Positions 7,132-56,627 are shown, numbered from the stretch's first letter. The stretch is 64,000 bases of DNA from a bacterium (GCA_037131675.1 JBAXQO010000003.1:2487-66486); one strand, 5' to 3'. Translations and numbers: made by a program. The notes: generated from the sequence alone by a model not told the origin.

Positions 7132-8772
7132 ATGAAGAAAATTTTATTTCCATTGTTTGTGTTTTTGTGTCTGTTCACCTTTACTCCTCAGACCCATGCT
7201 GCTACCAAATATTGGTATAGTGCAAGTAGTACAAATTGGGCAACTAGTACTAATTGGTTCCTGGATATTAATCTCACTGCCCCAACGGTTGTGGCAACAA
7301 GTGGTGATTATGTAGTTTTGCTGCCCGGATCAGTTGCACCTGTTCTTAATTTAAGTAGTTCAACACCACCTGATTTTATTGAGTCTAGACTGACCGGAGA
7401 TGCTGGTTCTGCTGGTTTCGTTATTACTGGTAGTGGATTTTTCTCTGCGACAACCAGCGGAAATGTTAATTTCAAAGGATCTGTATTTAATAACGCATAT
7501 ATTACGGGAAACGTTGTGTTTAATGATAGTTCTCGAAATAATAATGGAATAATTTCTGGAAGTGCTATTTTTAATAATAGCGCATTAAATTCTGGTGATG
7601 TCCTTGGTAGTGTGACATTTAATGATGGTAGTGTGAATACTGCAGTAAGTGCGTTTGGATCTACTACGGGTTCTGTTATTTTTAATGGTAACTCTAGAAA
7701 TGTTGGTCAGATAAGAAATAATGCTATTTTTAACGGAAGTTCCACAAATGCAGCTAATATAACAGGTAATGCGGTATTTAATAATAATTCATATAATGAT
7801 GGAGGTACTATAGAAGGTAATGCTACTTTTAATACAACTTGGTATAACAATGGTTCTAACAGTGCAAATAATGGAACATTTACTGTTTCTGGTCATAGAG
7901 CCTGGAACTATAGAGTAGGTGGAACTGTTTATGGCTCCGACGGTTTACCGGTGAATGAATTTTTCTTTAAAGATTTTGCTTCCAACTTTGTTCCGATAAA
8001 TAAACCTTCATATTTTTTGGATTTTGCAAAAAATTATTCATCCTCACTGTCCGAAACAGCCACTTTTTGTGGGGATAATTCGGAAGATGTTGGTGGTACA
8101 GCCCAAAGAATGCGTTACTATAGCTCAGATTGTACGCAATCCACGACTACTCGAAATTTTGTAAGTTCAGTACCTTGGGTTGTATCCGCTGATGGTGTTC
8201 GGGTTAACATGGCAAGTAGCACATATAATGCAAGTACAACATTTACTGCAATTAACGGAGGCTCATTTATTCCAAGTAACCTTGTTCCTACGGGTCTTTC
8301 GATTTCAAATCCCGCCACAAGTACTACGGTTACATCGTGGGCGCCAGTAATAAATTGGGGTGATTCAACGAGTTTTGCATATTCTTTCGATGATACTGAT
8401 TACGTCGATCTAGCTTCTGCGACAAGTTCTATTCCAGCCCCAACATTTGGTCAACATGTATTATCAATTCGAGGTACAAATTCAACAGGTATAACAATAG
8501 TTTCATCTTCATTTACTTATTCCCAACCTGTCGTTGTTAATTCTGGAGGTGGTTCATCTGGTGGGTCATCTCATGGAGGTGGTGGAGGTGGAGGGGGCTC
8601 AGCTAAGACGACCGCAACTGCAAGTACCTCGGTATCAACCTTAAAAGTTCCGGTAACTCCGGAAACAATTACAGCACTTAAACAAGAGCTTACAAAACAA
8701 CTTATAGCAGCTCTTCAGGAATTGCTGAAACAGCTTATTGCTGAGTTGGCCAAACTTCAGGCTGCTAAGTAA
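7132..8772 (+). CDS. Secreted beta-helix-like repeat protein with Gly/Ser linker and C-terminal coiled coil (possible surface or adhesin protein)
   Basis: Signal peptide MKKILFPLFVFLCLFTFTPQTHA; many ~19-20 aa repeats of type GN(A/V)xFNxxSxN; GGGSSGGSSHGGGGGGGG linker; heptad coiled coil LKQELTKQLIAALQELLKQLIAELAKLQAAK. Confidence 0.6.
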   Translation: MKKILFPLFVFLCLFTFTPQTHAATKYWYSASSTNWATSTNWFLDINLTAPTVVATSGDYVVLLPGSVAPVLNLSSSTPPDFIESRLTGDAGSAGFVITGSGFFSATTSGNVNFKGSVFNNAYITGNVVFNDSSRNNNGIISGSAIFNNSALNSGDVLGSVTFNDGSVNTAVSAFGSTTGSVIFNGNSRNVGQIRNNAIFNGSSTNAANITGNAVFNNNSYNDGGTIEGNATFNTTWYNNGSNSANNGTFTVSGHRAWNYRVGGTVYGSDGLPVNEFFFKDFASNFVPINKPSYFLDFAKNYSSSLSETATFCGDNSEDVGGTAQRMRYYSSDCTQSTTTRNFVSSVPWVVSADGVRVNMASSTYNASTTFTAINGGSFIPSNLVPTGLSISNPATSTTVTSWAPVINWGDSTSFAYSFDDTDYVDLASATSSIPAPTFGQHVLSIRGTNSTGITIVSSSFTYSQPVVVNSGGGSSGGSSHGGGGGGGGSAKTTATASTSVSTLKVPVTPETITALKQELTKQLIAALQELLKQLIAELAKLQAAK

Positions 8773-14311: not shown

Positions 14312-14419
14312 CATAATTTATGTTGTCTAGTATATTGGCCTTATTAATGAATAATAAATTCATATAATCTTCATGTAGGTTTTGTTAATGTGTTGAAAGT
14401 TATACGTACCTTAAAACCT

Positions 14420-14480
14420 GTTTTCACTACAGTAGAAAAAGCTTAATTATAGTTATGTTTTTTCTACTGTAGTGAAAAAC
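14420..14480. repeat. 21-bp perfect inverted repeat (long hairpin) in an AT-rich intergenic region
   Basis: gttttcactacagtagaaaaa ...17 nt loop... tttttctactgtagtgaaaac. Confidence 0.8.
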
Positions 14481-14519
14481 ACAGTGTAAACAACAACCAA
14501 CCAACGAAAGGAATTTAGT

Positions 14520-15068
14520 ATGGGATTAATAGGAACATTGGCTGAAAGTGTATTTGGAAAGGGGTGGAGCCCTCAAAATGTGAATTCTGATTTATCAGGA
14601 TCAAAAACCGTAATGGTCAGAGGGACGAGGAGAATATCCTTACCTCTTTTTGAGGTTTTTGCCTCCAATACGAACCGGAGCGCTAAAATTAAAATATCCC
14701 AAGTGTGGCCAGTGTTCGAAAAACTCTTCTACATGAACGGATATGTTGTGACTTCACAATCAGACAGCGTTTTGGTTTGCGACGAGATGAGAGATGGTGC
14801 TCTTATAAACCTTAAAAAGGATGCGTTGGATTTTGACAAATCTGCCATAGTCAGCCTCGGACAAATCTTGTCTTTGCTGCTTGAACAGGGAAGTGGTGAA
14901 GAAGGCTCACTCTTAACTAACGGATGGTCAAATGGGTTCCGTGTTGTTAACGACTATGATGAGCTTTGCACACTTGTTGTCTATGCAGATTCGGAAGGCT
15001 GGTGCATTGGTGTCGAAGCTGATGACAAAGGCGGACTTAAGAAGGGTCGCTTCTTTTATCCTCAGTAA
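14520..15068 (+). CDS. Hypothetical protein (182 aa), locally higher GC; first gene of a two-gene module with the large ATPase
   Basis: Clean ORF with RBS aaaggaa upstream; no family recognisable by eye. Confidence 0.5.
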   Translation: MGLIGTLAESVFGKGWSPQNVNSDLSGSKTVMVRGTRRISLPLFEVFASNTNRSAKIKISQVWPVFEKLFYMNGYVVTSQSDSVLVCDEMRDGALINLKKDALDFDKSAIVSLGQILSLLLEQGSGEEGSLLTNGWSNGFRVVNDYDELCTLVVYADSEGWCIGVEADDKGGLKKGRFFYPQ

Positions 15069-15082
15069 AATAATTGTTGAGT

Positions 15083-15130
15083 CCTGGTTTGTATCTCGTT
15101 GAATTAAACGAAACAAACCAGGGCTTTTAT
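15083..15130 (+). terminator. Hairpin plus T-run after the 182-aa ORF (attenuator or terminator)
   Basis: cctggtttgtatctcgttgaattaaacgaaacaaaccagggcttttattttttt. Confidence 0.6.
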
Positions 15131-15207
15131 TTTTTTATATTATTCACAACTCTATTGGATTTTTTCTATATTTTTTATTTGTATTTTGCGGTACAATTGT
15201 AAAGAAT

Positions 15208-17982
15208 ATGAATCCTAATTTTTCACAAGAAGGTGGGGCTTTTACAAATTCTCAGGATGAACTCGCATTTTTGCGAGAACGTATTGCATCACTTGAAAAA
15301 AACTTTGAGCAGAAAGGTGAAAAAATAAACCGTGAAGAAATAATTCGCGAACAAATAGACTCGTATAAAAAAGTCTCTCCAGAAGTTGCTCTCCATCAAG
15401 ATTTTGCACTCACGCATTCACAAGTAGAGGGGATAGTACTCGACCTCTCTCCAGAAGAGCATGACAAAAAAATGGAAGAATTGGTGGGGACTCTTCAAGA
15501 AAAAGGAATTCATAATACTTTGCGTGTGGTTGAAGGTTTGAAAAATCCGCACCTAGAGGATGATTTCCACAGATTTTTAGTGGAGTATGTAAAAAAAGGA
15601 TATCTGCTCGAAGGGATGAATGAGCGTGCCCCAATATATAAAACACTTCGACGTACTCTATACGAAATTGCTTTTCCTGATGCAGAGAAAGACGAGAAAC
15701 AAAAACCTCTAAAAGAGTTTATTTCAAGCATGGAGCAATTTTATTCTGGTCTTTTGAATGCTGGAGGAATAAAAAGCCTTCACGACTATATAACTATCGA
15801 GCTTGCAAATTCATACAATAGTCAAGAAACTGTGTTTTATATGTCGGTACCAAATGACCAATGTGATTTGTTTGAAAAGCAAATACTTTCTGTTTTTTCC
15901 AAAGCAAAAGTACTTGCTAAACATGATGACTACAATATTTTCAATGAATCCGGAATAACAAGTGGTTCGTTTGCTTCATATGTGAAGAGTGATGCACTAC
16001 CTCTTAAGCTTTATGATGAATATGATTATGATCCTCTCAATATCGTTCTCAACTCATTTTCTAAAATAGGTAAAGCAGGTGAAGGTGCTGCTATACAAAT
16101 TATTCTTAATCCGGCAGGAGATTTTTACCTATCTCGCTTTAAAAAAGCACTTGAGGAAATTGAAAAAGGTGGATCTAAAAAAGAAGCACTAGATGTAACC
16201 TATGATTTAGGTGAAGAGCTTGCAAAAGACTTTAAAATTTTTATTAAAGACATGTTCAAGGGGGATAAAAAGAAAACCGAGAAAGACCAGTTCGAACACA
16301 AATATGTTGACCAAGCTACGGTAGAAAGTTTAAAGAAAAAAATATCCTCTCCTGTGGTTGCTGCAAATATCCGCATTTTGGCATCTGCAGAAAACAGAGC
16401 ACGAGCAGAGGCTATTCGTAGTGAGCTAGAATCTACCTTCAACCAATTTGTAAGCACTACAGGAAATAGTGTTGTTTTCACAAAATGTGAAGGAAGTAAA
16501 CTAAATGTTCTTGTAAGGAATTTCTCGTTCAGGTATTTTATTGATGGTGAAGTTTTGCCTATGAATATTAAAGAACTCACAACTATTATGCATTTTCCTG
16601 CAGGCGGGCTTGCATCAAACCCAAACTTGAAAGAAGCAAAAGCAGGTTCAGCTCCTGCGCCAGTAGGTATGCCAGAAAGTGGATTGTTTCTTGGTACAAA
16701 TATTCACCAAAATATTAAAAAAGAAATTTATATAACTCCAGAAGACAGACTTCGTCATATGTATGTTATTGGTCAGACTGGTACAGGTAAGTCTGTATTT
16801 TTGAAGAATATGGCAATTCAGGATATTAAGAATGGGGAAGGTGTGTGTTTTATTGACCCGCATGGTTCGGATGTAGATGCTGTTCTTGCCTGTGTTCCAC
16901 CTGAGAGATATCAAGATGTTATATATTTTGACCCTGCGTATACAGAAAGACCGATGGCTCTCAACATGCTCGAATTTGATCCAACTCGTCCAGATCAAAA
17001 AACATTCGTAGTAAATGAATTATTTAGTATTTTCAAAAAACTTTTCAGTTCCGACACTATGGGCCCTGCGTTTGAACAATATTTCCGAAACTCTGCTGGT
17101 CTTGTGATGGAACATCCAGAAAGTGGTTGTACCCTTGTTGATGTTTCTCGTGTTCTTTCGGATAAAAGATATCGCGATCTTAAGCTTGCTCATTGTAAAA
17201 ATCCTCTCATTGCACAATTTTGGGCAAATGCAGAAAGAACCAGTGGGGAGCAGGGTTTGGCAAACTATGTGCAATATGTGACAAATAAATTCGATGTCTT
17301 TCTTTCAAATGACATTATGCGTCCTGTTGTTGCTCAAGAAAAATCATCTTTCAATTTTAGAGACATTATGGATAGAAAAAAGATTTTACTCGTCAATCTT
17401 TCAAAAGGACGTCTAGGAGACCTAAATGCAAACCTTATAGGACTTATTCTTGTTGGAAAGATTTTGATGGCAGCTTTGTCTCGTACTGATTTAGTAGGTA
17501 GAGAAGAGTTTCCACCTTTCTATCTTTATATTGATGAGTTTCAGAATATCACAACAGACTCAATCTCAACTATACTTTCTGAGGCCCGAAAATATAAACT
17601 TAGTCTTACGATTGCACATCAATTTATAAAACAGATTGAGGAAAATATTAGAGATGCGGTATTTGGAAACGTTGGGTCTATGGCAGTGTTTCGTGTGGGT
17701 GCCGAGGATGCAGAATTTTTGGTAAAACAATTTGAACCTGTGTTCACGACAAAGGATATTATGAATATCGATAACCTAAATGCTTATTTAAAAATCCTTT
17801 CCCAAGGAAAGCCTGTAAGACCATTTAGTATCCATGAACCTTTTCCACCGCAGGGAAATGTTGATGTGGCTGATAAGCTAAAGCAGCTTTCATATCTTAC
17901 ATATGGAAAAGACAGAACAGAGGTAGAAGAGGGTATTATGGAAAAATATGCTCCTACTGGAGGAATGAGTGTTAAATTATAG
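15208..17982 (+). CDS. Large P-loop ATPase: ~470-aa N-terminal domain of unknown function fused to a HerA/DUF87/VirB4/TraD-like ATPase domain
   Basis: Walker A GQTGTGKS followed by FIDPHGSD (the DPHGE-like motif of HerA/VirB4/VirD4-type ATPases); Walker B LYIDEFQN; 924 aa. Confidence 0.6.
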   Translation: MNPNFSQEGGAFTNSQDELAFLRERIASLEKNFEQKGEKINREEIIREQIDSYKKVSPEVALHQDFALTHSQVEGIVLDLSPEEHDKKMEELVGTLQEKGIHNTLRVVEGLKNPHLEDDFHRFLVEYVKKGYLLEGMNERAPIYKTLRRTLYEIAFPDAEKDEKQKPLKEFISSMEQFYSGLLNAGGIKSLHDYITIELANSYNSQETVFYMSVPNDQCDLFEKQILSVFSKAKVLAKHDDYNIFNESGITSGSFASYVKSDALPLKLYDEYDYDPLNIVLNSFSKIGKAGEGAAIQIILNPAGDFYLSRFKKALEEIEKGGSKKEALDVTYDLGEELAKDFKIFIKDMFKGDKKKTEKDQFEHKYVDQATVESLKKKISSPVVAANIRILASAENRARAEAIRSELESTFNQFVSTTGNSVVFTKCEGSKLNVLVRNFSFRYFIDGEVLPMNIKELTTIMHFPAGGLASNPNLKEAKAGSAPAPVGMPESGLFLGTNIHQNIKKEIYITPEDRLRHMYVIGQTGTGKSVFLKNMAIQDIKNGEGVCFIDPHGSDVDAVLACVPPERYQDVIYFDPAYTERPMALNMLEFDPTRPDQKTFVVNELFSIFKKLFSSDTMGPAFEQYFRNSAGLVMEHPESGCTLVDVSRVLSDKRYRDLKLAHCKNPLIAQFWANAERTSGEQGLANYVQYVTNKFDVFLSNDIMRPVVAQEKSSFNFRDIMDRKKILLVNLSKGRLGDLNANLIGLILVGKILMAALSRTDLVGREEFPPFYLYIDEFQNITTDSISTILSEARKYKLSLTIAHQFIKQIEENIRDAVFGNVGSMAVFRVGAEDAEFLVKQFEPVFTTKDIMNIDNLNAYLKILSQGKPVRPFSIHEPFPPQGNVDVADKLKQLSYLTYGKDRTEVEEGIMEKYAPTGGMSVKL

Positions 17983-19223: not shown

Positions 19224-22200
19224 ATGAAATTTTTTCGTTTATTTTTATCAATATTGTTTCTGGTTTGTAGTTTTGTAATAAGCCAACAAAACGTTTCCGC
19301 TTCTGTTGTTCCTGGTCCTGGAATTGAGATTAAAAATCAGACGGAATTTACAAATCTTTCTTTTGAAGACAGGGTTTACAAACCAGGGGATACTGTAAAA
19401 GCCTCGTTTACTTTTGTTAATAAAGATTCTTTTGATTATAGCGATATTTCACTCAGTCCATATCTTGAGGTTTTTTCATCGACAACAAAAGCTTTCGATG
19501 TTTATGGTATCCAAAATAAAGTAGGATCATATTTTATTCCACGTTCTTCCAGTAAAGTAATTTCATTTGAGTATACAATTCCACAATCTGGAAACATAAC
19601 AAAAGATGCAAGTGTGCGTCTTGTGGCTAGTGTATTTCAGGGTACAGGAGCTTCACTTGGACCTGTGGGTAGTTCAATAAAAGTTGATGGATTAATTTCT
19701 TCTGTTAATGTTGTGAATGCTTACTTAAAAGTAAGTAATAATATATATGGTGTTCAGGAAGGTCCTGTTATTTCATCTACGACCCCGGCCCACCTAATTG
19801 TAAAGCTTCAAAATAATACTGGAGATGCTATATCCCTAAAACCAAAAATTACAATTTTCGATCTCCAGCCTTCTCGTCCAGAGGTCGGAGATAAAACGTA
19901 TAGCGTTTTAAGTCTCAAAAAAAGAGAATCCCACGATCTCGATATAGAACTCCCTCAGATAGTAAAGCCCGGCGTGTACGCCGGAGAATTACGTCTTTTT
20001 GACGAAAAAGGGATTGAACGCTCAACTCTTATAACAAGTCGATGGATTATTGATGGAGATATGGTGACTATACCTAGTGTAACCATTGATAAAACTACCC
20101 TTAAAAAAGGAGAACAAGCAAATGTGACTGTGGTCTATACGGGAGCTCCAGTAAATATAGGTACAAGAGGTGTTTATAGTGTAGGTAAGGGAGAGTTAAA
20201 AGTTACTCTTTTTGGAAATGAAAATCAGGTTGTGGCTGAAGATAAGAAAGAGGTTGATTTTGACACGTTGAACTCGAATGCTGTTTTTAATCTTGTCACC
20301 AAAGAAGATGTCTCAAAGCTCAGTGTTCTTGTAATTGCGCTAAAAGGTGAAAAAGAACTTGCTCGCTACAGTACTCTTCTTACAGACCCAGATGTCCCGG
20401 TTGTTGTGGAATCTCCTATAAAAAATATAATTGTTTTTTCGATATTTTCTCTTATTGTTTTGTTGTTGGTTTTTTTTGCATTTTTTAAAATTAAATCAAG
20501 AAAAAAACTACCAACTTTATTTCTTGTAGTTATTTTTTTTACAGCTTTGTTTGGTCTAGGTGGAAAAGAGGTTTTGGCTGCTGACAGAGCCTGTCTTAAT
20601 GGTCAGTTTTGTGCTCAAGGGTCTATGACTTCTAATCTTGTGGTTGCTCCAAGTGCGGATATTTCTTCCAACATTTGGAATGTGGCAGAAGCTCAGGTGT
20701 GTGCTAATGGAGGTGGGCAGACTACTATGGTCTATGCAATCTATGATTCAAATAATAATTTAGTTTCTACAAAGACAGCTGTTCAAAATGATGGAGCTGC
20801 AGCATCCCATGATGATTATAATTCTTGGGTTGACTCTTATAACTCTGATATGTATTGGTACTATCAATACATGTATTATGCAGACACTTGGGTTGATCCA
20901 AGTGATGATAATTCTGATCCATATGGTCAACGTCAAGGTTATATTGATTTTGCGAACCACTATCTGGATCTTGCTAACGACATGTTGTCTTTGATGAATA
21001 ATTATAATCAATGGAGGACATTTACGGGATTTTATCCGAATACTGCAAATAGTATCCCTGTCCATATTATAGCTCCAACAACACCCGGTACATACAGGCT
21101 CGTGACTTCTGTTTCGCTCTTTGCAAATTATCGTGACGCGTGGAGAGCTGCTGGTGATGAGACAAATGGGGGACCAAAAACTCAAGGACCAATATCGTTT
21201 CAGTATAATTTTACTGTAGCCCTTCCTCCCTCCGCTCCCACAATCACCTCAACTGGAGGTCCTCTGTCTTGCGGAGTAAATTCATACACTTTTAATTGGG
21301 GAGCCGTATCGGGAGCAGTCTATTATGGAGCTCATATACTAGATGATACTGTCAGAACTGCAGGAGCTGCAGACTGTACATATGGAACTGATATCTGTGT
21401 AGGAGACTCAAGTATTGGGACTTCATATTCCGTACTTTCTACATCACAAACTCCTTCTTGTGGGATTCTTGCTGTTGGTTCATCTCTCACACCAGGACAA
21501 TCCATTACGTCTTGCGACGGAAGATTTAAATTTATATTACAAACAGATGGAAATGCGGTAATCTATCCTACAAATTCTAGTACGGCCTTATGGAGTTCAG
21601 GAACTAATGGTAAAGCTTCTGCAAAAATAATTATGCAAGGAGATGGAAATCTTGTAATTTACAATTCATCAGGAGGATTTATTTGGGGTTCAATTAACAG
21701 TACTGGTGGTCACGGGGGAACACCAACTGGTTTAAATATGCAAGCAGATGGAAATCTTGTCATATATGCAACAAATGGGGGTGTGTTGTGGAATTCAGGA
21801 ACAGGAGGTCATAGTGTTGTTACTTTGCAACCAGGACATTCATACGAAGCCAGGGCGTATGCATATAATTCAATCGGTTGGAGTGGTGGATCAAACACTA
21901 TTAAATTTAGCGTGCCAAGTTTGTCGCAATGTACTCAGTCATGTACTCGTAGTGACGGTGTTGTTGTTCTTAATAATGGAACAACCACCCTTTATGCTAC
22001 ACCTCAAACTAATTGTATCGATGGGGTGAAGGCTGTGGCTACATGTAATAATGGAGTATTTCTTATTAATGGTACCACAACGGATTATCAAGCAAGTTGT
22101 AGTTGTGTTTCAAACTATATATGTCAAGGTTCAACATTGGTAGACACTAATCATTGTGGACAATCGAGGACAGCTGGTGTGGATCAACAATGTAGTACAG

Positions 22201-22517
22201 GTTCTAGAGGGGTTGATATTTATGGGAATTGGGAGTTTATGAAAATAAATTCTTTCTTGAGTAATCCTAGCTACATTGCAAAAAATAACTCATGTACCCT
22301 CAAGTATAATATCTCAAATGGGTCATCAACATGCTCCATTTCCGGATATGGTTCAAATTTTCCTCGTATAATTAATCTAATAAACGGTTCAGCGATTGGA
22401 TCAGTCACAACCATGCCACTTGCATCAAGTACAACATATAGACTTAGTTGTGGTTATGGAACTGTAAACATAGTAAAGGATGCTGTATGTAGAGTATTGA
22501 GTGTTGCTGAATATTAA
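19224..22517 (+). CDS. Large surface protein: signal peptide, N-terminal beta-rich domain, helical-hairpin membrane anchor, and a C-terminal Cys-rich region with three bulb-type (B-lectin) mannose-binding lectin repeats
   Basis: Signal peptide MKFFRLFLSILFLVCSFVISQQNVSA; two TM segments around aa 395-445; QTDGNAVIY, QGDGNLVIY and QADGNLVIY are the QxDxNxVxY lectin motifs. Confidence 0.6.
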   Translation: MKFFRLFLSILFLVCSFVISQQNVSASVVPGPGIEIKNQTEFTNLSFEDRVYKPGDTVKASFTFVNKDSFDYSDISLSPYLEVFSSTTKAFDVYGIQNKVGSYFIPRSSSKVISFEYTIPQSGNITKDASVRLVASVFQGTGASLGPVGSSIKVDGLISSVNVVNAYLKVSNNIYGVQEGPVISSTTPAHLIVKLQNNTGDAISLKPKITIFDLQPSRPEVGDKTYSVLSLKKRESHDLDIELPQIVKPGVYAGELRLFDEKGIERSTLITSRWIIDGDMVTIPSVTIDKTTLKKGEQANVTVVYTGAPVNIGTRGVYSVGKGELKVTLFGNENQVVAEDKKEVDFDTLNSNAVFNLVTKEDVSKLSVLVIALKGEKELARYSTLLTDPDVPVVVESPIKNIIVFSIFSLIVLLLVFFAFFKIKSRKKLPTLFLVVIFFTALFGLGGKEVLAADRACLNGQFCAQGSMTSNLVVAPSADISSNIWNVAEAQVCANGGGQTTMVYAIYDSNNNLVSTKTAVQNDGAAASHDDYNSWVDSYNSDMYWYYQYMYYADTWVDPSDDNSDPYGQRQGYIDFANHYLDLANDMLSLMNNYNQWRTFTGFYPNTANSIPVHIIAPTTPGTYRLVTSVSLFANYRDAWRAAGDETNGGPKTQGPISFQYNFTVALPPSAPTITSTGGPLSCGVNSYTFNWGAVSGAVYYGAHILDDTVRTAGAADCTYGTDICVGDSSIGTSYSVLSTSQTPSCGILAVGSSLTPGQSITSCDGRFKFILQTDGNAVIYPTNSSTALWSSGTNGKASAKIIMQGDGNLVIYNSSGGFIWGSINSTGGHGGTPTGLNMQADGNLVIYATNGGVLWNSGTGGHSVVTLQPGHSYEARAYAYNSIGWSGGSNTIKFSVPSLSQCTQSCTRSDGVVVLNNGTTTLYATPQTNCIDGVKAVATCNNGVFLINGTTTDYQASCSCVSNYICQGSTLVDTNHCGQSRTAGVDQQCSTGSRGVDIYGNWEFMKINSFLSNPSYIAKNNSCTLKYNISNGSSTCSISGYGSNFPRIINLINGSAIGSVTTMPLASSTTYRLSCGYGTVNIVKDAVCRVLSVAEY

Positions 22518-29706: not shown

Positions 29707-30003
29707 AACGGATACTGATGAACAGTTCAATAACAGTTAAAATACGCTGAGGAACAGCCTAAAAACAGCGTAGCAAAGTCGGATAGATTTTTGGGAAGAA
29801 GTGTATTAAAATATGAAGACAACTTAATAATGTTAGAAGTAGCCTAAACCAGTGAGAAATTGCTGGCATGGTGAAGAAAGACCAGTAACGATTAAAGAAC
29901 CCATCATATGGGGCGTCGTTACTGGCCTTACTGGGAAACTGGTAAGGAGGGCGAAAGCTCTCACCTATGTGGTGGGCTTTTTGCTATCTTAATTTAAAAA
30001 ACT

Positions 30004-31955: not shown

Positions 31956-33524
31956 ATGCAAAAAGCAATTATCTATTGCAGAGTTTCCTCAGAGCGTCAG
32001 AAAATAGAAGGACACGGTTTAGAAAGCCAAGAACATCGATGTCGCGACCTCGCCTTTCAAAAAGGATATGAAGTTGAAAGAGTCTTCAGGGATAGTTTTT
32101 CTGGGGGAGGAGATTACACCAAAAGGCCAGCTATGTCTGAGCTACTTGCCTATATGGACTCCAAGCCATTCAACAGCTATATGGTTATCTTTGATGACTT
32201 AAAGCGACTAGCCAGAGATACAGAGCAGTATATAAAGCTTAAGAGAGCATTGGAGTTACGTCGAGCAAAAGTTGAATGTCCGAATTTTGTTTTTACGGAC
32301 TCTCCTGAAGGGCAGTATGTTGAAACAATAATGGCGGCAACCGCTCAACTTGAACGTGAACAGAATCGAAGACAGGTTATGCAGAAAATGAAAGCAAGGT
32401 TGGAGTTAGGTTATTGGTGTTTTCCAGATGTTCCTGAGGGGTATAAATTCACAAAGGACCCAGTGCACGGGAAGTTGCCAATACTTGTTCTAGAAAAAGC
32501 TTCCATAGTAAAGGAAGCCCTTGAGGGTTTTGCTACAGGTCGGTTTATTGAACAAGAGGACGTTAGAAGATTTCTTCAAGAAAAAAATATCTTGAATGGA
32601 AAACCTGTTTATCTTGAATATGTGAAAAGGATGCTAACAAGAGTATTTTACGCAGGGTACGTTGAATATGCTCCTTGGGAAGTCGCTAGAAGGCAGTCTA
32701 AGCATGAACCGCTAATTGATTTGGTAACCTTTGAAAAGATACAGACCAAGCTCAGAAGTAAAACAACTACTCACACAAAGAAAGTTATTAATGAGGATTT
32801 TCCTTTAAGGGGCTTTGTTCTTTGTGGTGACTGCAAACAGCCTGTTACAGCGAGTTGGAGTAAGGGAAGGAATGGAAAGTTTCCTTATTACCGATGCAAG
32901 ACAAAGGGGTGTTCTGAAAGAAATAAAAGTATACGTAAGAAAACTATTGAAGAAGAGTTTTCCGACATTATAGGAAAGATAAAACCAAGCGAGGAGGTTC
33001 TGAATCTGACTAAAGAAATAGTTGGAGATGTTTGGAGAAAAAGAGAATCTGATTTGGTTATCGGAAAATATCGGTCTGAAACGGAGATAGAAAACCTAGT
33101 AAAAGAGAAGGATAGGTTTTTGGAGTTGTTATCTAGAGCAACTGACAACAATGTGATTTCTGCTTACGAAGAGAAGGTTGCAAAAATATCTGAAAAAGTT
33201 TTGGTTCTAAAAGATTCCTTGATGTCATACGACAAACATAAACCAAACATTGAAACCGCTTTGGATATTGTTTTTGATTTTCTTAAAAACCCTTTAAAAC
33301 AATGGGAGAAGGAAAATATTCACACGAAAAGATTGGTTCTAAAGTTGGTCTTCGAGAAGAATTTGGAATATAACAAAAATAGCGGGTTTGAAACCGCTAT
33401 TCTGTCGCTCCCCTTAAGGGTATTTACCCTCCCAGAGGCTCAAAAATCGTCGCTAGTGGAGATGCGCGGAATCGAACCGCGGTGCAAAAGATTTTTCTCA
33501 ATGAGTCTACAAGGTTTATCGTGA
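31956..33524 (+). CDS. Large serine recombinase (integrase); the annotated 3' end reads through into the ssrA 3' region
   Basis: N-terminal resolvase catalytic motif IYCRVSSERQ; recombinase domain; zinc ribbon CGDCKQ...YYRCKTKGC; coiled-coil region; last ~23 codons overlap the tmRNA 3' end. Confidence 0.8.
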   Translation: MQKAIIYCRVSSERQKIEGHGLESQEHRCRDLAFQKGYEVERVFRDSFSGGGDYTKRPAMSELLAYMDSKPFNSYMVIFDDLKRLARDTEQYIKLKRALELRRAKVECPNFVFTDSPEGQYVETIMAATAQLEREQNRRQVMQKMKARLELGYWCFPDVPEGYKFTKDPVHGKLPILVLEKASIVKEALEGFATGRFIEQEDVRRFLQEKNILNGKPVYLEYVKRMLTRVFYAGYVEYAPWEVARRQSKHEPLIDLVTFEKIQTKLRSKTTTHTKKVINEDFPLRGFVLCGDCKQPVTASWSKGRNGKFPYYRCKTKGCSERNKSIRKKTIEEEFSDIIGKIKPSEEVLNLTKEIVGDVWRKRESDLVIGKYRSETEIENLVKEKDRFLELLSRATDNNVISAYEEKVAKISEKVLVLKDSLMSYDKHKPNIETALDIVFDFLKNPLKQWEKENIHTKRLVLKLVFEKNLEYNKNSGFETAILSLPLRVFTLPEAQKSSLVEMRGIEPRCKRFFSMSLQGLS

Positions 33525-33838
33525 TTCGGATGTTTTAGGTTGATAATGCTCTACATCACGCGACATGCATTATCCGCCGATCTCTTATTTTAGTTTAAGC
33601 TCTTCAAAAGAGAAGTGAAGTGCCGAGTCTCACATTATTACACCAATCGTTTTCCGTGAGGCATTGAAAACGTTGACGTCGTTTTAGCTTACGCTAGAGC
33701 GAATTGAAGATCTGCCACACTGTAGTATGGAGATTTCACTGCTGTTTTTGCAGTTAGGGTTTGTGACCTTTTAAAGAGTTATCACAGCTCTACCTTGCAC
33801 AAAGAAAAAAGGTTCCTTTGTCTATGCCGATCATCCCC
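33457..33838 (-). ncRNA. ssrA: tmRNA (ssrA), ~382 nt
   Basis: 5' GGGGAUGAUCGG... pairs with 3' ...CAUCUCC-A, giving G1-C72, G2-C71, G3.U70 and A73 (Ala identity elements); T-arm GCGGUUCGAUUCCGCG; internal tag frame GCA GAU CUU CAA UUC GCU CUA GCG UAA (ADLQFALA*); smpB lies immediately upstream. Confidence 0.8.
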
Positions 33839-49819: not shown

Positions 49820-50461
49820 CTAATGCGCGATAGTATAAGCAATAACGTGACGTGCTCCAGCTTTCAAAAGTTCACCACGAGCCTCTCCCAATGTTGCTCC
49901 CGTTGTCCACACGTCATCTATCAATATAATATTTCTCCCTCTAATTTTTTCTGAAAAGTCTACTTTAAATGAATTTTTTAAATTTATCAGTCTAGCGGAT
50001 TTATTTTTTGTATGAGCTTGGCTATCAGTATTTTTTGTCTTAGTGAGTATTTTATATGAAGTCTCAAAAGATTTGTTTATGTCGATTCTTTCAAGTTCAC
50101 GGACAATCCTTTCGCATTGATTGAATCCATGTTCTTTCATTCTTCTCTTTGTGGCAGGTATGGGGATCATTATTGGCTCTCGAAAATCTATCATTAAATG
50201 AATATCTCCTAAATCTTCTAAAATATGTTCATGAAGCATCTCTGCCACGGCTCTCACTAAGGTTTTATTTCCTTTGTATTTTATATCCCAAATAAGTTTT
50301 TTTGTTTTGCTATTTTTATAGTGGAAGAGTGAGAAAAAAATCGGATGCTCATTCGTGGCTTTTGGCAAATCAAGTAGCCCATCTTTTTCTTTTGTGAGAG
50401 TGTTCGAACCGAAAACTACGTCAATGACATATCCCCAGATTTTCTCCATCAACTCTTTCAT
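49820..50461 (-). CDS. comF: ComF family phosphoribosyltransferase (competence protein ComFC-like)
   Basis: C-terminal PRTase motif NIILIDDVWTTGATLGEARGELLKAGARHV; start chosen at MKELMEKIW (50461); the track ORF extends to 50590, overlapping pilM. Confidence 0.7.
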   Translation of the reverse strand: MKELMEKIWGYVIDVVFGSNTLTKEKDGLLDLPKATNEHPIFFSLFHYKNSKTKKLIWDIKYKGNKTLVRAVAEMLHEHILEDLGDIHLMIDFREPIMIPIPATKRRMKEHGFNQCERIVRELERIDINKSFETSYKILTKTKNTDSQAHTKNKSARLINLKNSFKVDFSEKIRGRNIILIDDVWTTGATLGEARGELLKAGARHVIAYTIAH

Positions 50462-50477
50462 ATATATATTATATATA

Positions 50478-50486
50478 TGATACAAT
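50478..50486 (+). promoter_or_regulatory. Extended -10 TGATACAAT upstream of pilM
   Basis: tgatacaat ~16 nt before the pilM ATG. Confidence 0.45.
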
Positions 50487-50501
50487 AAAACAATATTTTG
50501 T

Positions 50502-51644
50502 ATGTCTAATTCTTTTTCTGAAATATTCAATAATTTTTTTAACTCAAAGGAGGAGAGTGTTGTTGGTGTTGATATAGGTTCATCTTCCATTAAGATTGTC
50601 CAACTGAAAAGAAAAAGAGGTAAGGCTGTGCTTGAAACATATGGAGAGCTTGCACTAGGTCCATATGTAGGTTTTCAAGTGGGGCAGGCTACTAATCTAT
50701 CTCAAGAAAAAATAGTTGAAGCTCTTAAGGATATTATGGATCCAAAAGTTGCTAACATAACCACTAAAAATTGCGGAATAGCAATTCCAATAAAATCTAG
50801 TTTAGTATCCACAATCGAGATGCCTAATCTTTCTGAGAAGCAGCTAAACCAGATGATTCCCATCGAGGCCAGAAAATACATTCCAGTACCGATATCTGAG
50901 GTTACGCTTGACTGGTTTGTTATTCCAACCGAGGCAGATATTCCAGAAGAATCATCCGAAGATCTTCCAGACCAAAAAACTGCTGCGGTGGTGGAGAAAA
51001 AAACACATGTGTTGATTGTTGCTATTCACAACGATGTACTTACTCGTTTTTCCAACATTGTCACAAATGCACAGCTAGATGCGGGATTTTTTGAAATAGA
51101 AATGTTTAGTACTGTACGTGCAAGTTTGGATCAAGACACCAACCCTGTGCTGGTTTTAGATATGGGAGCTGCAACAACAAAACTTTATATTGTGGAAAAA
51201 GGAGTGGTTAGAAATTCCCACATCATCAGTCGTGGTTCTCAGGATATTACACTTTCCATATCTTCAGCTTTGGGTGTTCCCATGGATAGAGCAGAAAAAC
51301 TCAAACGTAATTTTGGATCAAATTTGGCAGAAGAAGACAAGCAAGTTGGTGACATTATAGGCCTCATAATTGACCCAATATTATCTGAAGTTGGTAGTGT
51401 TTTGTTGAACTATGAAAAAAAATACAATAAAAACATTTCAAAGGTACTTGTAACAGGTGGGGGAGCTGCTCTCAATGGCTTTACTGAATATGCACAAAAA
51501 AAGCTGACAACTTCTGTTGTGTGCGCTGATCCTTTTTCCAAAGTTGAGACTCCTGCGTTCTTGACTGATGTTCTAAAAAAGACAGGTGTGAGTTTTTCTG
51601 TTGCTTTAGGTGCGGCATTGCGAAGATTGCAAGAAATTTCATAG
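50502..51644 (+). CDS. pilM: Type IV pilus assembly protein PilM (actin-like)
   Basis: VVGVDIGSSSIKIVQLKRK N-terminus; ~380 aa. Confidence 0.8.
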   Translation: MSNSFSEIFNNFFNSKEESVVGVDIGSSSIKIVQLKRKRGKAVLETYGELALGPYVGFQVGQATNLSQEKIVEALKDIMDPKVANITTKNCGIAIPIKSSLVSTIEMPNLSEKQLNQMIPIEARKYIPVPISEVTLDWFVIPTEADIPEESSEDLPDQKTAAVVEKKTHVLIVAIHNDVLTRFSNIVTNAQLDAGFFEIEMFSTVRASLDQDTNPVLVLDMGAATTKLYIVEKGVVRNSHIISRGSQDITLSISSALGVPMDRAEKLKRNFGSNLAEEDKQVGDIIGLIIDPILSEVGSVLLNYEKKYNKNISKVLVTGGGAALNGFTEYAQKKLTTSVVCADPFSKVETPAFLTDVLKKTGVSFSVALGAALRRLQEIS

Positions 51645-51687
51645 CATTGTTTTTTCTTTCGTATTATAATATACACAGTTCATTTTT

Positions 51688-52329
51688 ATGGAACCAAAAT
51701 TTCAAACATCATTTATACCAAAAAAACCTATCGTGTCATCACAAGGTGTGGCGAGAGAGTCTATTAATTTTTTTATGATAATCGCTGTCGTGATTTTTCT
51801 TGGGAGTATAGTGCTTTCAGCTGCTGTGTATGGGTATAAATTTTTTCTAGATAAAAATGTTAAAGATCTTCAGTCGAGCCTAGTAACTGCTAGTGGACAA
51901 TTTGATCAAGACTTTATAAGTTCTGTAAATAGATTAAACACACGCATTGAAACTTCTAAAGACCTTTTGAATAAACATGTTTCAGCATCAACTATTTTTG
52001 GTTTCCTAGGGTCTCACACGTTGAAGACTGTCTCATATACAGACTTCACATATTCTCTGGATAATGACGGTACTATAAAAGTTGTGCTCAAGGGTGTTGC
52101 TCAAAGTTATGGCTCCATTGCTTTACAGTCAGAGGAGTTTGGTAAACAAAATCAATATATTAAAAGTCCTATATTTTCAGACTTGAATCCAGATCAAAAT
52201 GGTAATGTAGTTTTCACGCTCACAGCTCTGCTTGATAAGAACCTTATCTCTTATGTAAAAACACTTTCTCAGAATCCAACACAACAGAAAAATGTAGATG
52301 CGGGAGTAATACCAACTAATACTCAATAA
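51688..52329 (+). CDS. pilN: PilN-like pilus assembly protein
   Basis: N-terminal TM helix then a periplasmic domain; position after pilM. Confidence 0.6.
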   Translation: MEPKFQTSFIPKKPIVSSQGVARESINFFMIIAVVIFLGSIVLSAAVYGYKFFLDKNVKDLQSSLVTASGQFDQDFISSVNRLNTRIETSKDLLNKHVSASTIFGFLGSHTLKTVSYTDFTYSLDNDGTIKVVLKGVAQSYGSIALQSEEFGKQNQYIKSPIFSDLNPDQNGNVVFTLTALLDKNLISYVKTLSQNPTQQKNVDAGVIPTNTQ

Positions 52330-52330
52330 C

Positions 52331-52885
52331 ATGAAATCAATAACCCCTTTTATTTTTATTCTTGTCGCGGTTGTTCTCTTCTTTGGAGTAACAGATCCTT
52401 TATATAAACAGGTGATTACTCTGCGTGCGCAGGGGAACGAGTATAACGATGTTCTTGTTAAATCAACCCAGTTATTAGCAAAACGTAAGAGTTTGCAAGA
52501 GAAGTCTAACAGCTTTTCTCCTACAGATGTTGAGCGTCTTCGGAAACTTCTTCCAGATGGTGTGGACAACGTTAAGTTAATTATTGATATAGATGAGATT
52601 GCAAAGAGGTACGGACTTACTATAAAAAATGTGCGACTAGATGATTCCAAAACAACAAAGAGTGGAGTAAAAGATCCGGCGGCAACTATCACAGCAGGTG
52701 AATCAAAGTACGGTTCTATTCCGATGGGTTTTTCTGTTACTGCTGACTACTCAACATTTATGAATTTTTTGCAAGATCTGGAAGGGAGCTTGAGAATCGT
52801 TGATGTAACAAGTATTAGTCTTAAGCCGGGAACAAATGGTGTTTATTCATTTGATGTATCATTAAAAACTTACTGGCTTAAATAA
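52331..52885 (+). CDS. pilO: PilO-like pilus assembly protein
   Basis: N-terminal TM helix, coiled coil, then a C-terminal domain; position. Confidence 0.55.
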   Translation: MKSITPFIFILVAVVLFFGVTDPLYKQVITLRAQGNEYNDVLVKSTQLLAKRKSLQEKSNSFSPTDVERLRKLLPDGVDNVKLIIDIDEIAKRYGLTIKNVRLDDSKTTKSGVKDPAATITAGESKYGSIPMGFSVTADYSTFMNFLQDLEGSLRIVDVTSISLKPGTNGVYSFDVSLKTYWLK

Positions 52886-52886
52886 T

Positions 52887-53342
52887 ATGTCATCCCTAAT
52901 AAAAACAATCATTACAATTGCGGTCTTGGCGGGAGTTGGTTTTGTTGGATATAACTATTTATCACGAGACACTTCATCTCCTGATGTGCTTCAAGTTCAG
53001 AAAGACGATCCTTCACAAATGGGTGCTCAGGTACTTTCTGCTCTAAATCAACTCCAACAACTAAAGTTGGATGAAAGTATTTTTAGCAATCCAGCATTCA
53101 AGAGTTTGAAAGACTTTAGTCGTTCAATTCCTGCTGAACCAATTGGTCGTTCAAACCCCTTTGCTCCCATTGGCGTAGACGTTGGTTCTGTGGCTACAAA
53201 TACATTAACTGTAGGCACAGCCGTACCTCCAAATAGTACTTCATCACCCCAGAGGGAGTTATTAAAAACATCTCAGGTTTCAAAGCCAAAATTGCCTATA
53301 CCTGAAAATTTACCAGTAGGAGTACAGGTATCAAATAATTAA
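52887..53342 (+). CDS. Small membrane-anchored protein (PilP-like?) within the pilus operon
   Basis: N-terminal TM helix; Ser/Pro-rich; position between pilO and pilB. Confidence 0.4.
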   Translation: MSSLIKTIITIAVLAGVGFVGYNYLSRDTSSPDVLQVQKDDPSQMGAQVLSALNQLQQLKLDESIFSNPAFKSLKDFSRSIPAEPIGRSNPFAPIGVDVGSVATNTLTVGTAVPPNSTSSPQRELLKTSQVSKPKLPIPENLPVGVQVSNN

Positions 53343-53361
53343 GGTAGTTCACAATTTCGAT

Positions 53362-55074
53362 ATGACCTTCATTGACTTTCTTGTTGAAAAAAAAGTAATA
53401 GACAAAAATGATACAACCTTATTAAAAAATGATCTAAAGAAACTTTCTTTAGATGATGCTCTATTAAACCGTGGGCTTACCGGCAATGACATAATTGAGC
53501 TTAAGGGTGAATACTACAATATTCCTATAAGAAGCATTGAAGATGGGTCAGTTCCTTTTGATGTTTTGAAATATATACCAGAAGAATCAGCAACCCATTA
53601 TAATTTTGTTCCGATTGGCGTTCGCGACGGTTTTCTGGAGGTCGGTCTTGTTGATCCTGACAACATTGAAGCACGCGATGCTCTAAACTTCATTGCATCA
53701 AAAGTAAACATGCCATTTAAGGCATATCTAATAACGCCAGAAGATTTTAAAAGAGTTTTGGAAGTGTATAAAGGACTCTCAGGAGAAGTTACAAAGGCGC
53801 TTACCGAGCTCGATAGTGAGTTGTCAGAAGAAGAGGCTTTGTTGATGGATGAAAAAGGAACAATACAAAAATCTGTAACAGGAACAACGATTATTGAAGA
53901 TGCGCCTGTGACAAAAATTGTTGCAACCATACTAAGGTATGCTGTAGAAGGTAATGCCTCAGACGTTCATATAGAACCAATGGCGGATAAAGTTCGTGTT
54001 CGTTTCCGAATGGACGGCGAATTAGGTACAAGTTTAATTCTACCTCTTAAAGTGCTTCCTGCGGTTGCGGCTCGTATTAAAATTTTATGCAGTATGCGTC
54101 TTGATGAAAAAAGAAAACCTCAAGACGGTAGTTTTTCTGCTAAGGTTGAGGGAAGGCAAGTTGATTTTCGTGTCTCAACATTTCCAGTCGTGTATGGTGA
54201 GAAAGTCGTGATGCGTATTCTCGATAAAGAAAAAGGTGTAAAAAAACTTGAGGATTTGGGGATGACACCAGAAAACCTTGCTCTTATTAGGGAAGCAATA
54301 AAGCGACCGTTTGGTCTTATTCTCATTTCAGGTCCGACTGGTTCTGGTAAGTCAACAACTCTTTATTCCATGTTGAATGAAATCGATAAAGAAACTAACA
54401 ACGTGCTTTCTCTTGAGGATCCTGTGGAGTACAACATTCCTGGCATCAGCCAATCTCAAGTACGTCCAGAAATTGGTTACGATTTCTCGACAGGTCTTCG
54501 TACAACACTTCGACAGGACCCAGACGTGATCATGGTGGGGGAGATTCGTGATAAAGAAACAGCTCAGCTTGCTATTCAAGCTTCACTTACAGGACACCTT
54601 GTTCTCTCAACTATTCACACAAATAGTTCTACTGGTATTGTTCCTCGTCTAATAGATATGGGTGTTGATCCTTATCTTATTCCACCAACACTTATTTTAG
54701 GTATAGCTCAACGTCTCGTTAGAACACTTTGTCCTGGTGCAGGTAAGCCCTTGCCAATCAATGACAGTCTTACACTCATGCTAAATAAACAATTCGAAGA
54801 TTTACCAGAATCAAAACGTTCAAAAATTGTATTTCCAAGTGAAGTGCTTGCACTCTCACCATCACCAGATTGTCCAAGTGGAACCCGTGGACGAGAAGCT
54901 GTGATTGAAATGTTTAAGATGGATTCAGATATTGAAAAAGTGATTCTTCAAAGTCCTGTAGAATCAGAAATATATAAAGTTGTTCGCAATAAAGGAATGC
55001 TTACAATGAAAGAAGATGCAATTTTGAAGGCGTTCAATAAGAAAATTCCTTTTGAAGAAGTGAATAATTTGTAA
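53362..55074 (+). CDS. pilB: Type IV pilus assembly ATPase PilB (GspE family)
   Basis: Walker A GPTGSGKSTTLYSM; GspE N-domain; 570 aa. Confidence 0.9.
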   Translation: MTFIDFLVEKKVIDKNDTTLLKNDLKKLSLDDALLNRGLTGNDIIELKGEYYNIPIRSIEDGSVPFDVLKYIPEESATHYNFVPIGVRDGFLEVGLVDPDNIEARDALNFIASKVNMPFKAYLITPEDFKRVLEVYKGLSGEVTKALTELDSELSEEEALLMDEKGTIQKSVTGTTIIEDAPVTKIVATILRYAVEGNASDVHIEPMADKVRVRFRMDGELGTSLILPLKVLPAVAARIKILCSMRLDEKRKPQDGSFSAKVEGRQVDFRVSTFPVVYGEKVVMRILDKEKGVKKLEDLGMTPENLALIREAIKRPFGLILISGPTGSGKSTTLYSMLNEIDKETNNVLSLEDPVEYNIPGISQSQVRPEIGYDFSTGLRTTLRQDPDVIMVGEIRDKETAQLAIQASLTGHLVLSTIHTNSSTGIVPRLIDMGVDPYLIPPTLILGIAQRLVRTLCPGAGKPLPINDSLTLMLNKQFEDLPESKRSKIVFPSEVLALSPSPDCPSGTRGREAVIEMFKMDSDIEKVILQSPVESEIYKVVRNKGMLTMKEDAILKAFNKKIPFEEVNNL

Positions 55075-55089
55075 TATAATAAAATAACC

Positions 55090-55488
55090 ATGACAGATCT
55101 GAAACCAAAAGTACTTATAGTCGATGATGATAAATTTCTCATCGATATGTATGCATTAAAATTTACAAAAAAGGGTTACGAAGTAAATACTTCTTTAAAC
55201 GGAAGTGATGCACTTACCAAACTCAGAGATGGATATGTCCCAGATGTAATTGTCTGTGATATCATCATGCCGGTTATGGATGGGTTAAAGTTTTTAGAAA
55301 ATATGCGTGCAGAAAAACTCGCACCGAAGGCAGCTGTAGTCGTACTCTCAAACCAAGGTCAGCACGAAGATATAGAGAATGCTCAAGCTTTTAATATAGA
55401 TGGATACATTATTAAGGCACTTACCATTCCTTCAGAGGTTATCGACCAAGTTGATACTGTATATCGTGGTAAGGTAAATATTTCATAA
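55090..55488 (+). CDS. Stand-alone response-regulator receiver domain (PilH/CheY-like)
   Basis: VLIVDDDKFLIDMY...VIVCDIIMPVMDG...; phospho-acceptor Asp context. Confidence 0.75.
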   Translation: MTDLKPKVLIVDDDKFLIDMYALKFTKKGYEVNTSLNGSDALTKLRDGYVPDVIVCDIIMPVMDGLKFLENMRAEKLAPKAAVVVLSNQGQHEDIENAQAFNIDGYIIKALTIPSEVIDQVDTVYRGKVNIS

Positions 55489-55497
55489 TTAAAAAAC

Positions 55498-56565: not shown

Positions 56566-56579
56566 TTTTAATTTTATAA

Positions 56580-56608
56580 GGGCCAGGTGCGCTTTGCGCA
56601 CCTGGCCC
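56580..56608. promoter_or_regulatory. GC-rich perfect hairpin between pilT and pilC
   Basis: gggccaggtgcgctttgcgcacctggccc. Confidence 0.6.
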
Positions 56609-56627
56609 TTTGAGTTATAATGTACAC

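Follow-up and report, generated by a model that had tools for sequence, protein, structure and literature searches.

A large part of bacterial diversity belongs to the Patescibacteria, which rely on host cells. In the stretch of bacterial DNA analysed here (64,000 nucleotides, GCA_037131675.1 JBAXQO010000003.1:2487-66486; called the window below), two open reading frames (ORFs) follow each other on the plus strand, one of 182 amino acids (aa) at 14520-15068 and one of 924 aa at 15208-17982, the larger of which ends in a P-loop ATPase domain. The question raised by this locus is whether the pair forms an accessory two-gene module for translocation or defence, as the original prediction proposed, or whether the ATPase has to be understood by itself. 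Both ORFs are present with the positions and sizes first given, and what had been observed was largely correct; the interpretation was not. Our data indicates that the pair does not form a two-gene module and that the locus is not a defence island. The 924-aa gene is a core, vertically inherited Paceibacteria gene under strong purifying selection, and the 182-aa ORF is an unrelated, lineage-specific, recently acquired orphan gene with its own terminator. We consider it reasonably probable that the large protein, a core fusion of DUF8128 to a motor resembling type IV coupling proteins (T4CPs), acts as a ring translocase or coupling motor, with a type IV secretion system (T4SS) as its most plausible partner.

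The motor itself is a P-loop ATPase domain of the TraD/VirD4/TrwB type, which occupies 16669-17982 on the plus strand (about aa 488-924). Its Walker A motif GQTGTGKS (16771-16794, plus strand, aa 522-529) is invariant in our alignments A1 and A3, and in the Walker B motif LYIDEFQN (17524-17547, plus strand, aa 773-780) residues D776, E777 and F778 are invariant in A1. A third motif, FIDPHGSD, is also present as had been reported, though at aa 548-555, 18 residues past Walker A and not immediately after it. Pfam profile searches of the kind that had been recommended placed TraG-D_C (25.0 bits, cut-off 22) and DUF87 (25.2 bits, cut-off 23.2) above threshold, with T4SS-DNA_transf (19.0, cut-off 20.1) and TrwB_AAD_bind (18.9, cut-off 20.5) falling narrowly short. 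TrwB_AAD_bind was matched by 31 of 31 diverse members of the family (best E 9.6e-11). The only PDB relatives found by sequence were TrwB (E 5e-5; hhalign probability 94%) and, more weakly, DotL. The placing of the C-terminal half in the FtsK/HerA/VirB4/VirD4 clade is thereby borne out, and the closest members of that clade are the coupling proteins VirD4, TraD and TrwB. With TrwB of R388, VirD4 and TraD the window protein shares the P-loop nucleotide-binding domain, both Walker motifs and an all-helical insert. The insert is predicted here by an AlphaFold2 (AF2) model, in which the segment at aa 597-722 lies between strands 518-522 and 771-776, that is, between Walker A and Walker B. When the model was compared by Foldseek with TrwB-deltaN70 (about 420 residues), TM-scores of 0.57-0.64, normalised to TrwB, were obtained over some 413-447 columns.

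What precedes the motor was said to have no recognisable family over its roughly 470 residues. This claim is out of date, since the precomputed Pfam matches of the homologues, including that of the 97%-identical P0001, on which the assignment rests, place PF26449 (DUF8128) in the N-terminal half of all 120 best homologues. In the window the DUF8128 core covers 15625-16647 on the plus strand (about aa 140-480) and has a predicted alpha/beta fold. A structure prediction of the N-domain, also recommended earlier, gave a predicted local distance difference test (pLDDT) score of 78.9 and a predicted TM-score of 0.73 for the domain alone; the full-length model, built on an alignment of 61 sequences, had a pLDDT of 76.9 and consists of helices at aa 15-129, an alpha/beta part at 149-460 and a RecA-like ATPase. 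In Foldseek searches against the PDB the best match of the full-length model was TrwK, the VirB4 protein of R388, over about 900 columns (E 3e-14), followed by HerA, DotL, Cag-beta and TrwB. With the N-domain model each of the top 10 matches was to TrwK/VirB4 (E 9e-6 to 1e-3, probability 0.99-1.0), whereas the eleventh had an E of 0.05. This points to a fold like that of the VirB4 N-terminal domain for DUF8128, and among PDB structures the modelled domain appears to resemble that half of VirB4 only.

The window protein resembles VirB4 and TrwK in having an N-terminal alpha/beta part followed by a C-terminal ATPase, in being soluble by prediction, and in that TrwK is the best PDB match of both models. 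It differs from them in that CagE_TrbE_VirB, AAA_10 and P-loop_TraG were not detected in it, TIGR00929 reached only 20.8 bits against a cut-off of 643, and its gene is not adjacent to VirB3, VirB6 or VirB8. It should be noted here that Patescibacteria have a separate bona fide VirB4 near dnaA. The motor is T4CP-like by sequence, and the whole protein would be VirB4-like by its predicted architecture. The other departure from the coupling proteins lies in the anchor. TrwB, VirD4 and TraD have an N-terminal transmembrane (TM) anchor, as a rule of two helices, in place of which the window protein has a 480-aa N-terminal region that is predicted to be soluble. A 19-residue Kyte-Doolittle scan for TM helices found no segment above 1.6 except a core helix of the ATPase at 739-757, whereas the TrwB control reached 2.48 and 2.15 at residues 52 and 9, corresponding to its two TM segments. 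On hydropathy the 924-aa protein is therefore without a TM anchor and predicted to be soluble. The genes of TrwB, VirD4 and TraD also have linked relaxase or mating-pair-formation genes, a linkage which the window gene does not have.

The first 135 residues (15208-15612, plus strand) are a unit of their own. They form the helical module of the AF2 model and carry a conserved motif NPHxEDDFHRFLVEY at aa 113-127. A sister subfamily of short forms (about 790-850 aa, from Wolfebacteria and others) begins at the equivalent of window residue ~140, and in 48 of 78 short-form loci an ORF of 116-190 aa stands directly upstream, mostly with gaps of -8 to +20 nucleotides (nt). Among the short-form loci (L093-L173) an example is the ORF at L093:7602-7997, which is followed by the ATPase at L093:8001-10379. 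A hidden Markov model (HMM) built from 56 of these small ORFs, none of which had a Pfam match, matched window aa 13-127 with an E of 1e-17, including the NPHxxDxFH motif. This match indicates that window residues 1-135 are the small helical protein fused to the DUF8128-ATPase. The two forms are a gene fission/fusion pair, and the conserved partner of the ATPase lies within the 924-aa ORF and not upstream of it.

How widely is this protein distributed? Among 8,000 scored candidates, 3,218 homologues were found at E<=1e-3. The best 120 of these are full length with 55-97% identity, and besides DUF8128 they have TraG-D_C, DUF87 or TrwB_AAD_bind matches. NCBI names the homologues 'TraM recognition domain-containing protein' and assigns them to Parcubacteria, Nomurabacteria or Paceibacterota, and one member is labelled 'DUF8128 domain-containing protein' in UniRef. 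The N-domain alone recovered 860 cluster representatives (50% identity) at E<=1e-3. In a scan of GTDB species genomes at least 595 genomes had a relative, all of them labelled as Patescibacteria lineages. The locus therefore adds another member to a catalogued, functionally uncharacterised family. Compared with its 97% relative (locus L001) the ATPase has a ratio of nonsynonymous to synonymous substitution rates (dN/dS) of 0.025, and its GC content is native. The order secY-adk-map-[ATPase]-ndk is kept in relatives at 97%, 81% and about 58% identity (L001-L006 and L008), and synteny with secY-adk-map and ndk reaches relatives down to about 50% identity. Of 86 related loci in which an ATPase was called, 51 have ndk downstream of it and 43 have map upstream. 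In other subfamilies the neighbours are dnaX, CysRS, RmuC and YqeY. In the window the upstream surroundings are ribosomal proteins, secY, adk and map, and downstream follow ndk, a lectin-domain surface protein, a beta-CASP RNase, a SLOG protein and rplT-rpmI-infC. As a side observation, one related locus (L007:4890-6923) holds a tandem paralogue of 677 aa upstream of its DUF8128-ATPase, with the same T4CP-like domain, without DUF8128 and with an extra C-terminal extension of about 250 aa (43% identity, hhalign E 1e-94). Such a tandem fits the approximately two T4CP homologues per genome reported for Patescibacteria. No second ATPase paralogue was found in the window.

If the ATPase is a core gene, what is the 182-aa ORF doing in front of it? 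The ORF has a dN/dS of 0.185 against L001, which shows it to be a real protein-coding gene. It is an orphan, as was said before, with nothing in Pfam, PADLOC, NCBIfam, PHROGs or the PDB, and its homologues make up 3 clusters only, all at least 75% identical. Its higher GC content also holds: 43.2% (41.5% at third codon positions, GC3) against 36.8% (GC3 25.9%) for the ATPase and 38% for the window. In the 81%-identical relative L003, and in L008 as well, the ORF is absent. The ATPase of L003 begins 92 nt past map, and the spacer aligns to about 15128-15207 of the window, including the promoter-like match described below. From this alignment the window bears an insertion of ~0.8 kb, at ~14312-15127, that comprises a palindrome, the ORF and a terminator. 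Elsewhere the gap between map and the ATPase is either empty, with map directly upstream (21 loci), or holds unrelated, unclustered ORFs. The slot of L006 holds a 157-aa ORF to which the 182-aa ORF is not related. A role of the 182-aa ORF as a partner of the ATPase was rejected, since its homologues are confined to close relatives and the slot of L006 holds an unrelated ORF.

The palindrome (14421-14478) is near-perfect, with 29-nt arms that are 90% complementary (dG -34.8 kcal/mol, z -7.4), and lies inside the lineage-specific insertion upstream of the ORF. It is identical in L001 and absent from L003, which is without the insertion. It matched no Rfam family. A reading of it as a repeated element was rejected because it occurs once in the window, and the search for riboswitches or known RNAs in the intergenic regions gave only chance, sub-threshold miRNA-like hairpin matches. 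Behind the ORF, a terminator-like hairpin with a T-run lies at 15079-15138 on the plus strand (hairpin at 15079-15126, then TTTTATTTTTTT; dG -26.8 kcal/mol, z -6.8). None of 200 shuffles folded as well, and the hairpin is kept in L001. The hairpin with its T-run is thus real as first described. Its proposed role as an attenuator of the ATPase is not supported. Of the two genes only the small ORF sits in a variable slot, and the hairpin is best read as the intrinsic terminator of that ORF; together with TTTTATTTTTTT it would end the transcript of the 182-aa ORF. Past it, at 15143-15172 on the plus strand, a sigma-70-like promoter match (TTCACA, 18 nt spacer, TATATT) lies upstream of the ATPase gene. 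Beside this it was observed that the non-coding flanks of the 182-aa ORF are strongly conserved against L001, with 165 of 168 nt identical at 14352-14519 and about 135 of 139 at 15069-15207. They are more conserved than synonymous sites, the identity at third codon positions in neighbouring genes being 74-87%. The dS of the ATPase against L001 is 0.60, about twice that of the 182-aa ORF and of ndk (~0.27). Regulatory or RNA constraint, or recent recombination, could account for these contrasts.

These results bear directly on the idea that the orphan and the ATPase together make up an anti-phage defence or translocation system in a variable slot. In its favour, the ORF is compositionally foreign and the slot does vary; HerA-family ATPases are common in defence, with fold matches to DUF4297-HerA, TdpAB and DndH; and PADLOC gave weak matches, to mad8 (47.7 bits) and to the HerA of several systems. 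However, PADLOC, which was run on the two proteins only, gave generic ATPase-domain matches and nothing for the 182-aa ORF. The mad8 match to the MADS system covers the ATPase domain only, other mad genes were not seen at the locus, and Pfam scans of 20 further window ORFs and of examples of the neighbour families showed no mad or defence genes. The pairing is limited to near-identical relatives (at least 97% identity), relatives at 81% to 50% identity keep the ATPase but do not have the ORF, and a terminator and a separate conserved promoter-like region stand between the two genes. The palindrome that was taken to bound an accessory slot is real and the slot is accessory for the 182-aa ORF; for the ATPase, with its conserved synteny, native GC and dN/dS of 0.025, it is not. 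The two-gene reading is largely refuted, and we regard it as highly improbable. The examination of neighbourhood conservation that had been suggested accordingly came out against it, as neither a defence nor a T4SS partner is conserved beside the ATPase.

Evidence for the work of the family comes from more distant relatives on plasmids and phages, with 21-26% identity to the window protein. PHROG 5156 (SPO1 gp27.4-like, of unknown function) matches residues 173-913 with an E of 6e-82, and tblastn found homologues of 21-25% identity in SPO1-like Bacillus phages (gp27.4), phage G and TP-84 (hosts Bacillus/Geobacillus). By the same method homologues were found on 263 plasmids, of Bacillus, Clostridium, Streptomyces, haloarchaea and Sulfolobus. 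On the B. subtilis plasmid NRS6107_2 a 913-aa homologue ('DUF87 domain-containing protein'; hhalign 99.9%, residues 190-900) is encoded immediately ahead of a replication-relaxation gene and of a conjugation operon with TcpE-like and TcpF-type VirB4 genes. This homologue occupies the classical coupling-protein position. On large C. botulinum/sporogenes plasmids an 800-aa ATP-binding homologue (hhalign 99.8%) follows a TrbC/VirB2 gene; beyond VirB2 the context is uninformative. Both cover the DUF8128 core and the ATPase and, like the window protein, have no TM segments. Of the contextual evidence, these plasmid settings speak most strongly for the family working together with type IV secretion machinery. 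The NRS6107_2, Clostridium and PHROG 5156 homologues differ from the window protein in that the helical module is missing, and according to the database records none of them is experimentally characterised. The plasmid homologues belong to mobile elements and have relaxase-like, VirB4 or VirB2 genes as neighbours; the window gene stands isolated on a chromosome.

The occurrence of full-length homologues on Firmicutes, actinobacterial and archaeal plasmids and in the SPO1-like, G and TP-84 phages could also mean that the window gene is what remains of an integrated conjugative element or prophage, a coupling protein now in decay. Such an origin is scarcely credible here: the catalytic motifs are all intact under strongly purifying selection, the gene keeps its place on the chromosome in hundreds of species, it is not flanked by an integrase, a relaxase or repeat boundaries, and the mobile homologues stand at 21-26% identity only.

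What could a core, anchor-less coupling-protein-like ATPase be doing in these bacteria? By analogy with its relatives, the 924-aa protein probably assembles into a ring on the cytoplasmic side of the membrane and works there as an ATP-driven translocase or as a motor for substrate coupling. The VirB4-like DUF8128 domain and the helical module, replacing TM helices, would recruit it to membrane partners encoded elsewhere. The most plausible partner would be the chromosomal patescibacterial T4SS, with its virB4 cluster near dnaA, into which DNA or protein substrates could be fed. In Southlakia the T4SS cluster is without a recognisable coupling protein (PMC10633639), and in the single species tested the patescibacterial T4SS is essential. 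Passages of Quinonero-Coronel et al. 2025 (PMC12102498) report 5,713 VirD4-type T4CP homologues in 2,918 of 3,035 Patescibacteria genomes, 148 of them near virB4. The class described in those passages, a near-universal T4CP-like ATPase of Patescibacteria that is unlinked to virB4, is the one to which the window protein belongs; there the homologues are handled as T4CP hits only. The lack of a TM anchor, the VirB4-like fold modelled for DUF8128, the split/fused module with residues 1-135 as a fused separate gene, and the map-ATPase-ndk synteny are described here and not in those passages. The original prediction had named housekeeping FtsK/SpoIIIE and the VirB4-like proteins of the candidate phyla radiation (CPR) as groupings that would speak against it. 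The ATPase clusters with neither FtsK nor patescibacterial VirB4; a loosely similar outcome was nevertheless found, in that it falls into the reported T4CP class that lies away from virB4.

A number of results weigh against a T4SS role of the window protein. Among the 20 larger ORFs scanned in the window no T4SS, relaxase or other partner was found, and no T4SS or partner gene is conserved across 169 related loci. In the cited passages T4CP homologues are present in 96% of Patescibacteria genomes and VirB4 in 80% (PMC12102498), which suggests at least some T4SS-independent role. Southlakia has two T4CP-like paralogues, of which SEML1_0142 (1,019 aa) is essential and SEML1_0293 (921 aa) is dispensable; either of them, or neither, may be the orthologue of the window gene. 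The NCBIfam models of conjugative coupling proteins scored far below their equivalog cut-offs (SXT_TraD 52.7 of 366 bits, conj_TOL_TraD 37.3 of 648). The likeness of the N-domain to TrwK is one of predicted structure only, with TM-scores of about 0.3 and a root-mean-square deviation of 8-10 A. PF03135 had no match in the 31 diverse members, the TrwK control giving an E of 4.5e-35. Sequence homology between DUF8128 and the VirB4 N-domain was rejected as well, as hhalign of A1 and A3 against TrwK aligns the P-loop only.

The same distribution of T4CP homologues and VirB4 would also agree with the protein being a housekeeping motor independent of T4SS, that is, a soluble HerA/FtsK-like translocase or helicase for repair, segregation or DNA uptake after ComEC, exapted from a conjugative coupling protein. 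We hold this to be unlikely, though it deserves serious attention. The position of the gene at the end of the ribosomal-protein/secY-adk-map cluster with ndk, the dnaX, CysRS, RmuC and YqeY neighbours elsewhere and the very strong purifying selection agree with it. The fold of the ATPase domain matches HerA, DndH, TdpAB and phage large terminase. ComFA is not annotated in Southlakia, and the ATPase adjoins comFC and type IV pilus genes in three related loci (L037, L093 and L095). Other results stand against it. The window protein has the FtsK-HerA P-loop core in common with HerA/DUF87 helicases, as its DUF87 score of 25.2 bits and the HerA fold matches reflect, but the DUF87 match covers profile positions 13-63 of 220, HerA_C reaches 14.4 bits (cut-off 22), and the PADLOC HerA match is limited to aa 499-553. 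It differs from HerA-NurA in that no HAS-barrel is evident and no NurA-like or defence partner lies at the window locus. No nuclease or DNA-repair partner is conserved, and the closest families by sequence are coupling proteins and not HerA or FtsK. FtsK/SpoIIIE differs further, in that PF01580 matches at 16.6 bits (cut-off 24) over the P-loop only and the window protein has no TM segments such as those of the 4TM N-domain of FtsK. Replacement of FtsK was considered and set aside, because Patescibacteria already have a canonical FtsK (SEML1_0096 in Southlakia), which makes a substitute unlikely. The full-length plasmid homologue in coupling-protein position beside a relaxase-like gene also speaks against a housekeeping motor.

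A link to pili or competence was likewise tried and rejected. Three loci (L037, L093 and L095) have comFC-pilM-pilB next to the ATPase and three others (L105, L116 and L153) have pilB-T-C upstream of it, which makes 6 of about 170 loci, approximately what chance would give for a 10-gene locus in an 800-gene genome. In the window a type IV pilus/competence locus lies at 49820-57836, 33 kb from the ATPase, with genes for ComFC-like (49820-50590, minus strand), PilM (50502-51644), PilB (53362-55074), PilT (55498-56565) and PilC (56610-57836) proteins.

Within the coupling-motor reading, which we favour, a bolder version can be put forward. The DUF8128 family might be a so far unrecognised class of type IV secretion ATPases of hybrid make-up, in which a VirD4-type motor has its membrane anchor swapped for a VirB4-like docking domain and a small helical adaptor, the adaptor being a gene of its own in some lineages and fused here. 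For the essential T4SS of Patescibacteria the family might then supply the coupling protein that is 'missing', and it may be orthologous to the essential SEML1_0142 of Southlakia epibionticum. This is a speculative proposal that we consider quite unlikely to hold in full. If it were true, a core chromosomal gene would be tied to the host-dependent growth of CPR bacteria. A near-universal, anchor-less VirD4-like ATPase is an obvious candidate for a coupling protein, or otherwise for another core role in DNA or protein translocation, and its anatomy of helical module, DUF8128 and T4CP-type motor offers concrete handles for experiments. The interest rests in the family, which is near-universal, possibly tied to T4SS and hybrid in architecture; the single locus adds little beyond this.

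Several minor observations were made in related loci and in the rest of the window. Near the ATPase, a DUF5663 protein (about 100 aa; one of 248 aa) is encoded in 18 of approximately 169 related loci (L075, L077, L078, L082, L086, L119, L126, L130, L146, L147, L151, L152, L155, L157, L165, L168, L169 and L170). In 17 of the 18 the DUF5663 gene is preceded by one for a large (about 500-2,000 aa), fast-evolving protein without a signal peptide, most of these with 1-2 central hydrophobic segments, and the pair lies upstream or downstream of the ATPase. A membrane partner and a substrate are both conceivable roles for the pair. A search of the window for homologues of the DUF5663 protein and of the large membrane protein turned up none.

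In the window the gene of a large serine recombinase (31956-33524, plus strand; with the domains Resolvase, Recombinase and Zn_ribbon_recom) and the 3' end of the transfer-messenger RNA (tmRNA) gene (33454-33838, minus strand; 98 bits) overlap. Elements integrated at ssrA typically show such an overlap, and the ORFs upstream, at 28.4-31.3 kb, are mostly without family matches. Just upstream of the possible integrated element, at 29841-29962, lies a LOOT RNA (RF03000; 82 bits against a gathering threshold of 46). Two predicted surface proteins interrupt or flank the housekeeping cluster. The one at 7132-8772 (546 aa) is rich in Asn, Ser and Thr and repetitive, with a Gly/Ser run and a helical tail at its end, and the one at 19224-22517 (1,097 aa) has a weak B_lectin match and a central hydrophobic segment.

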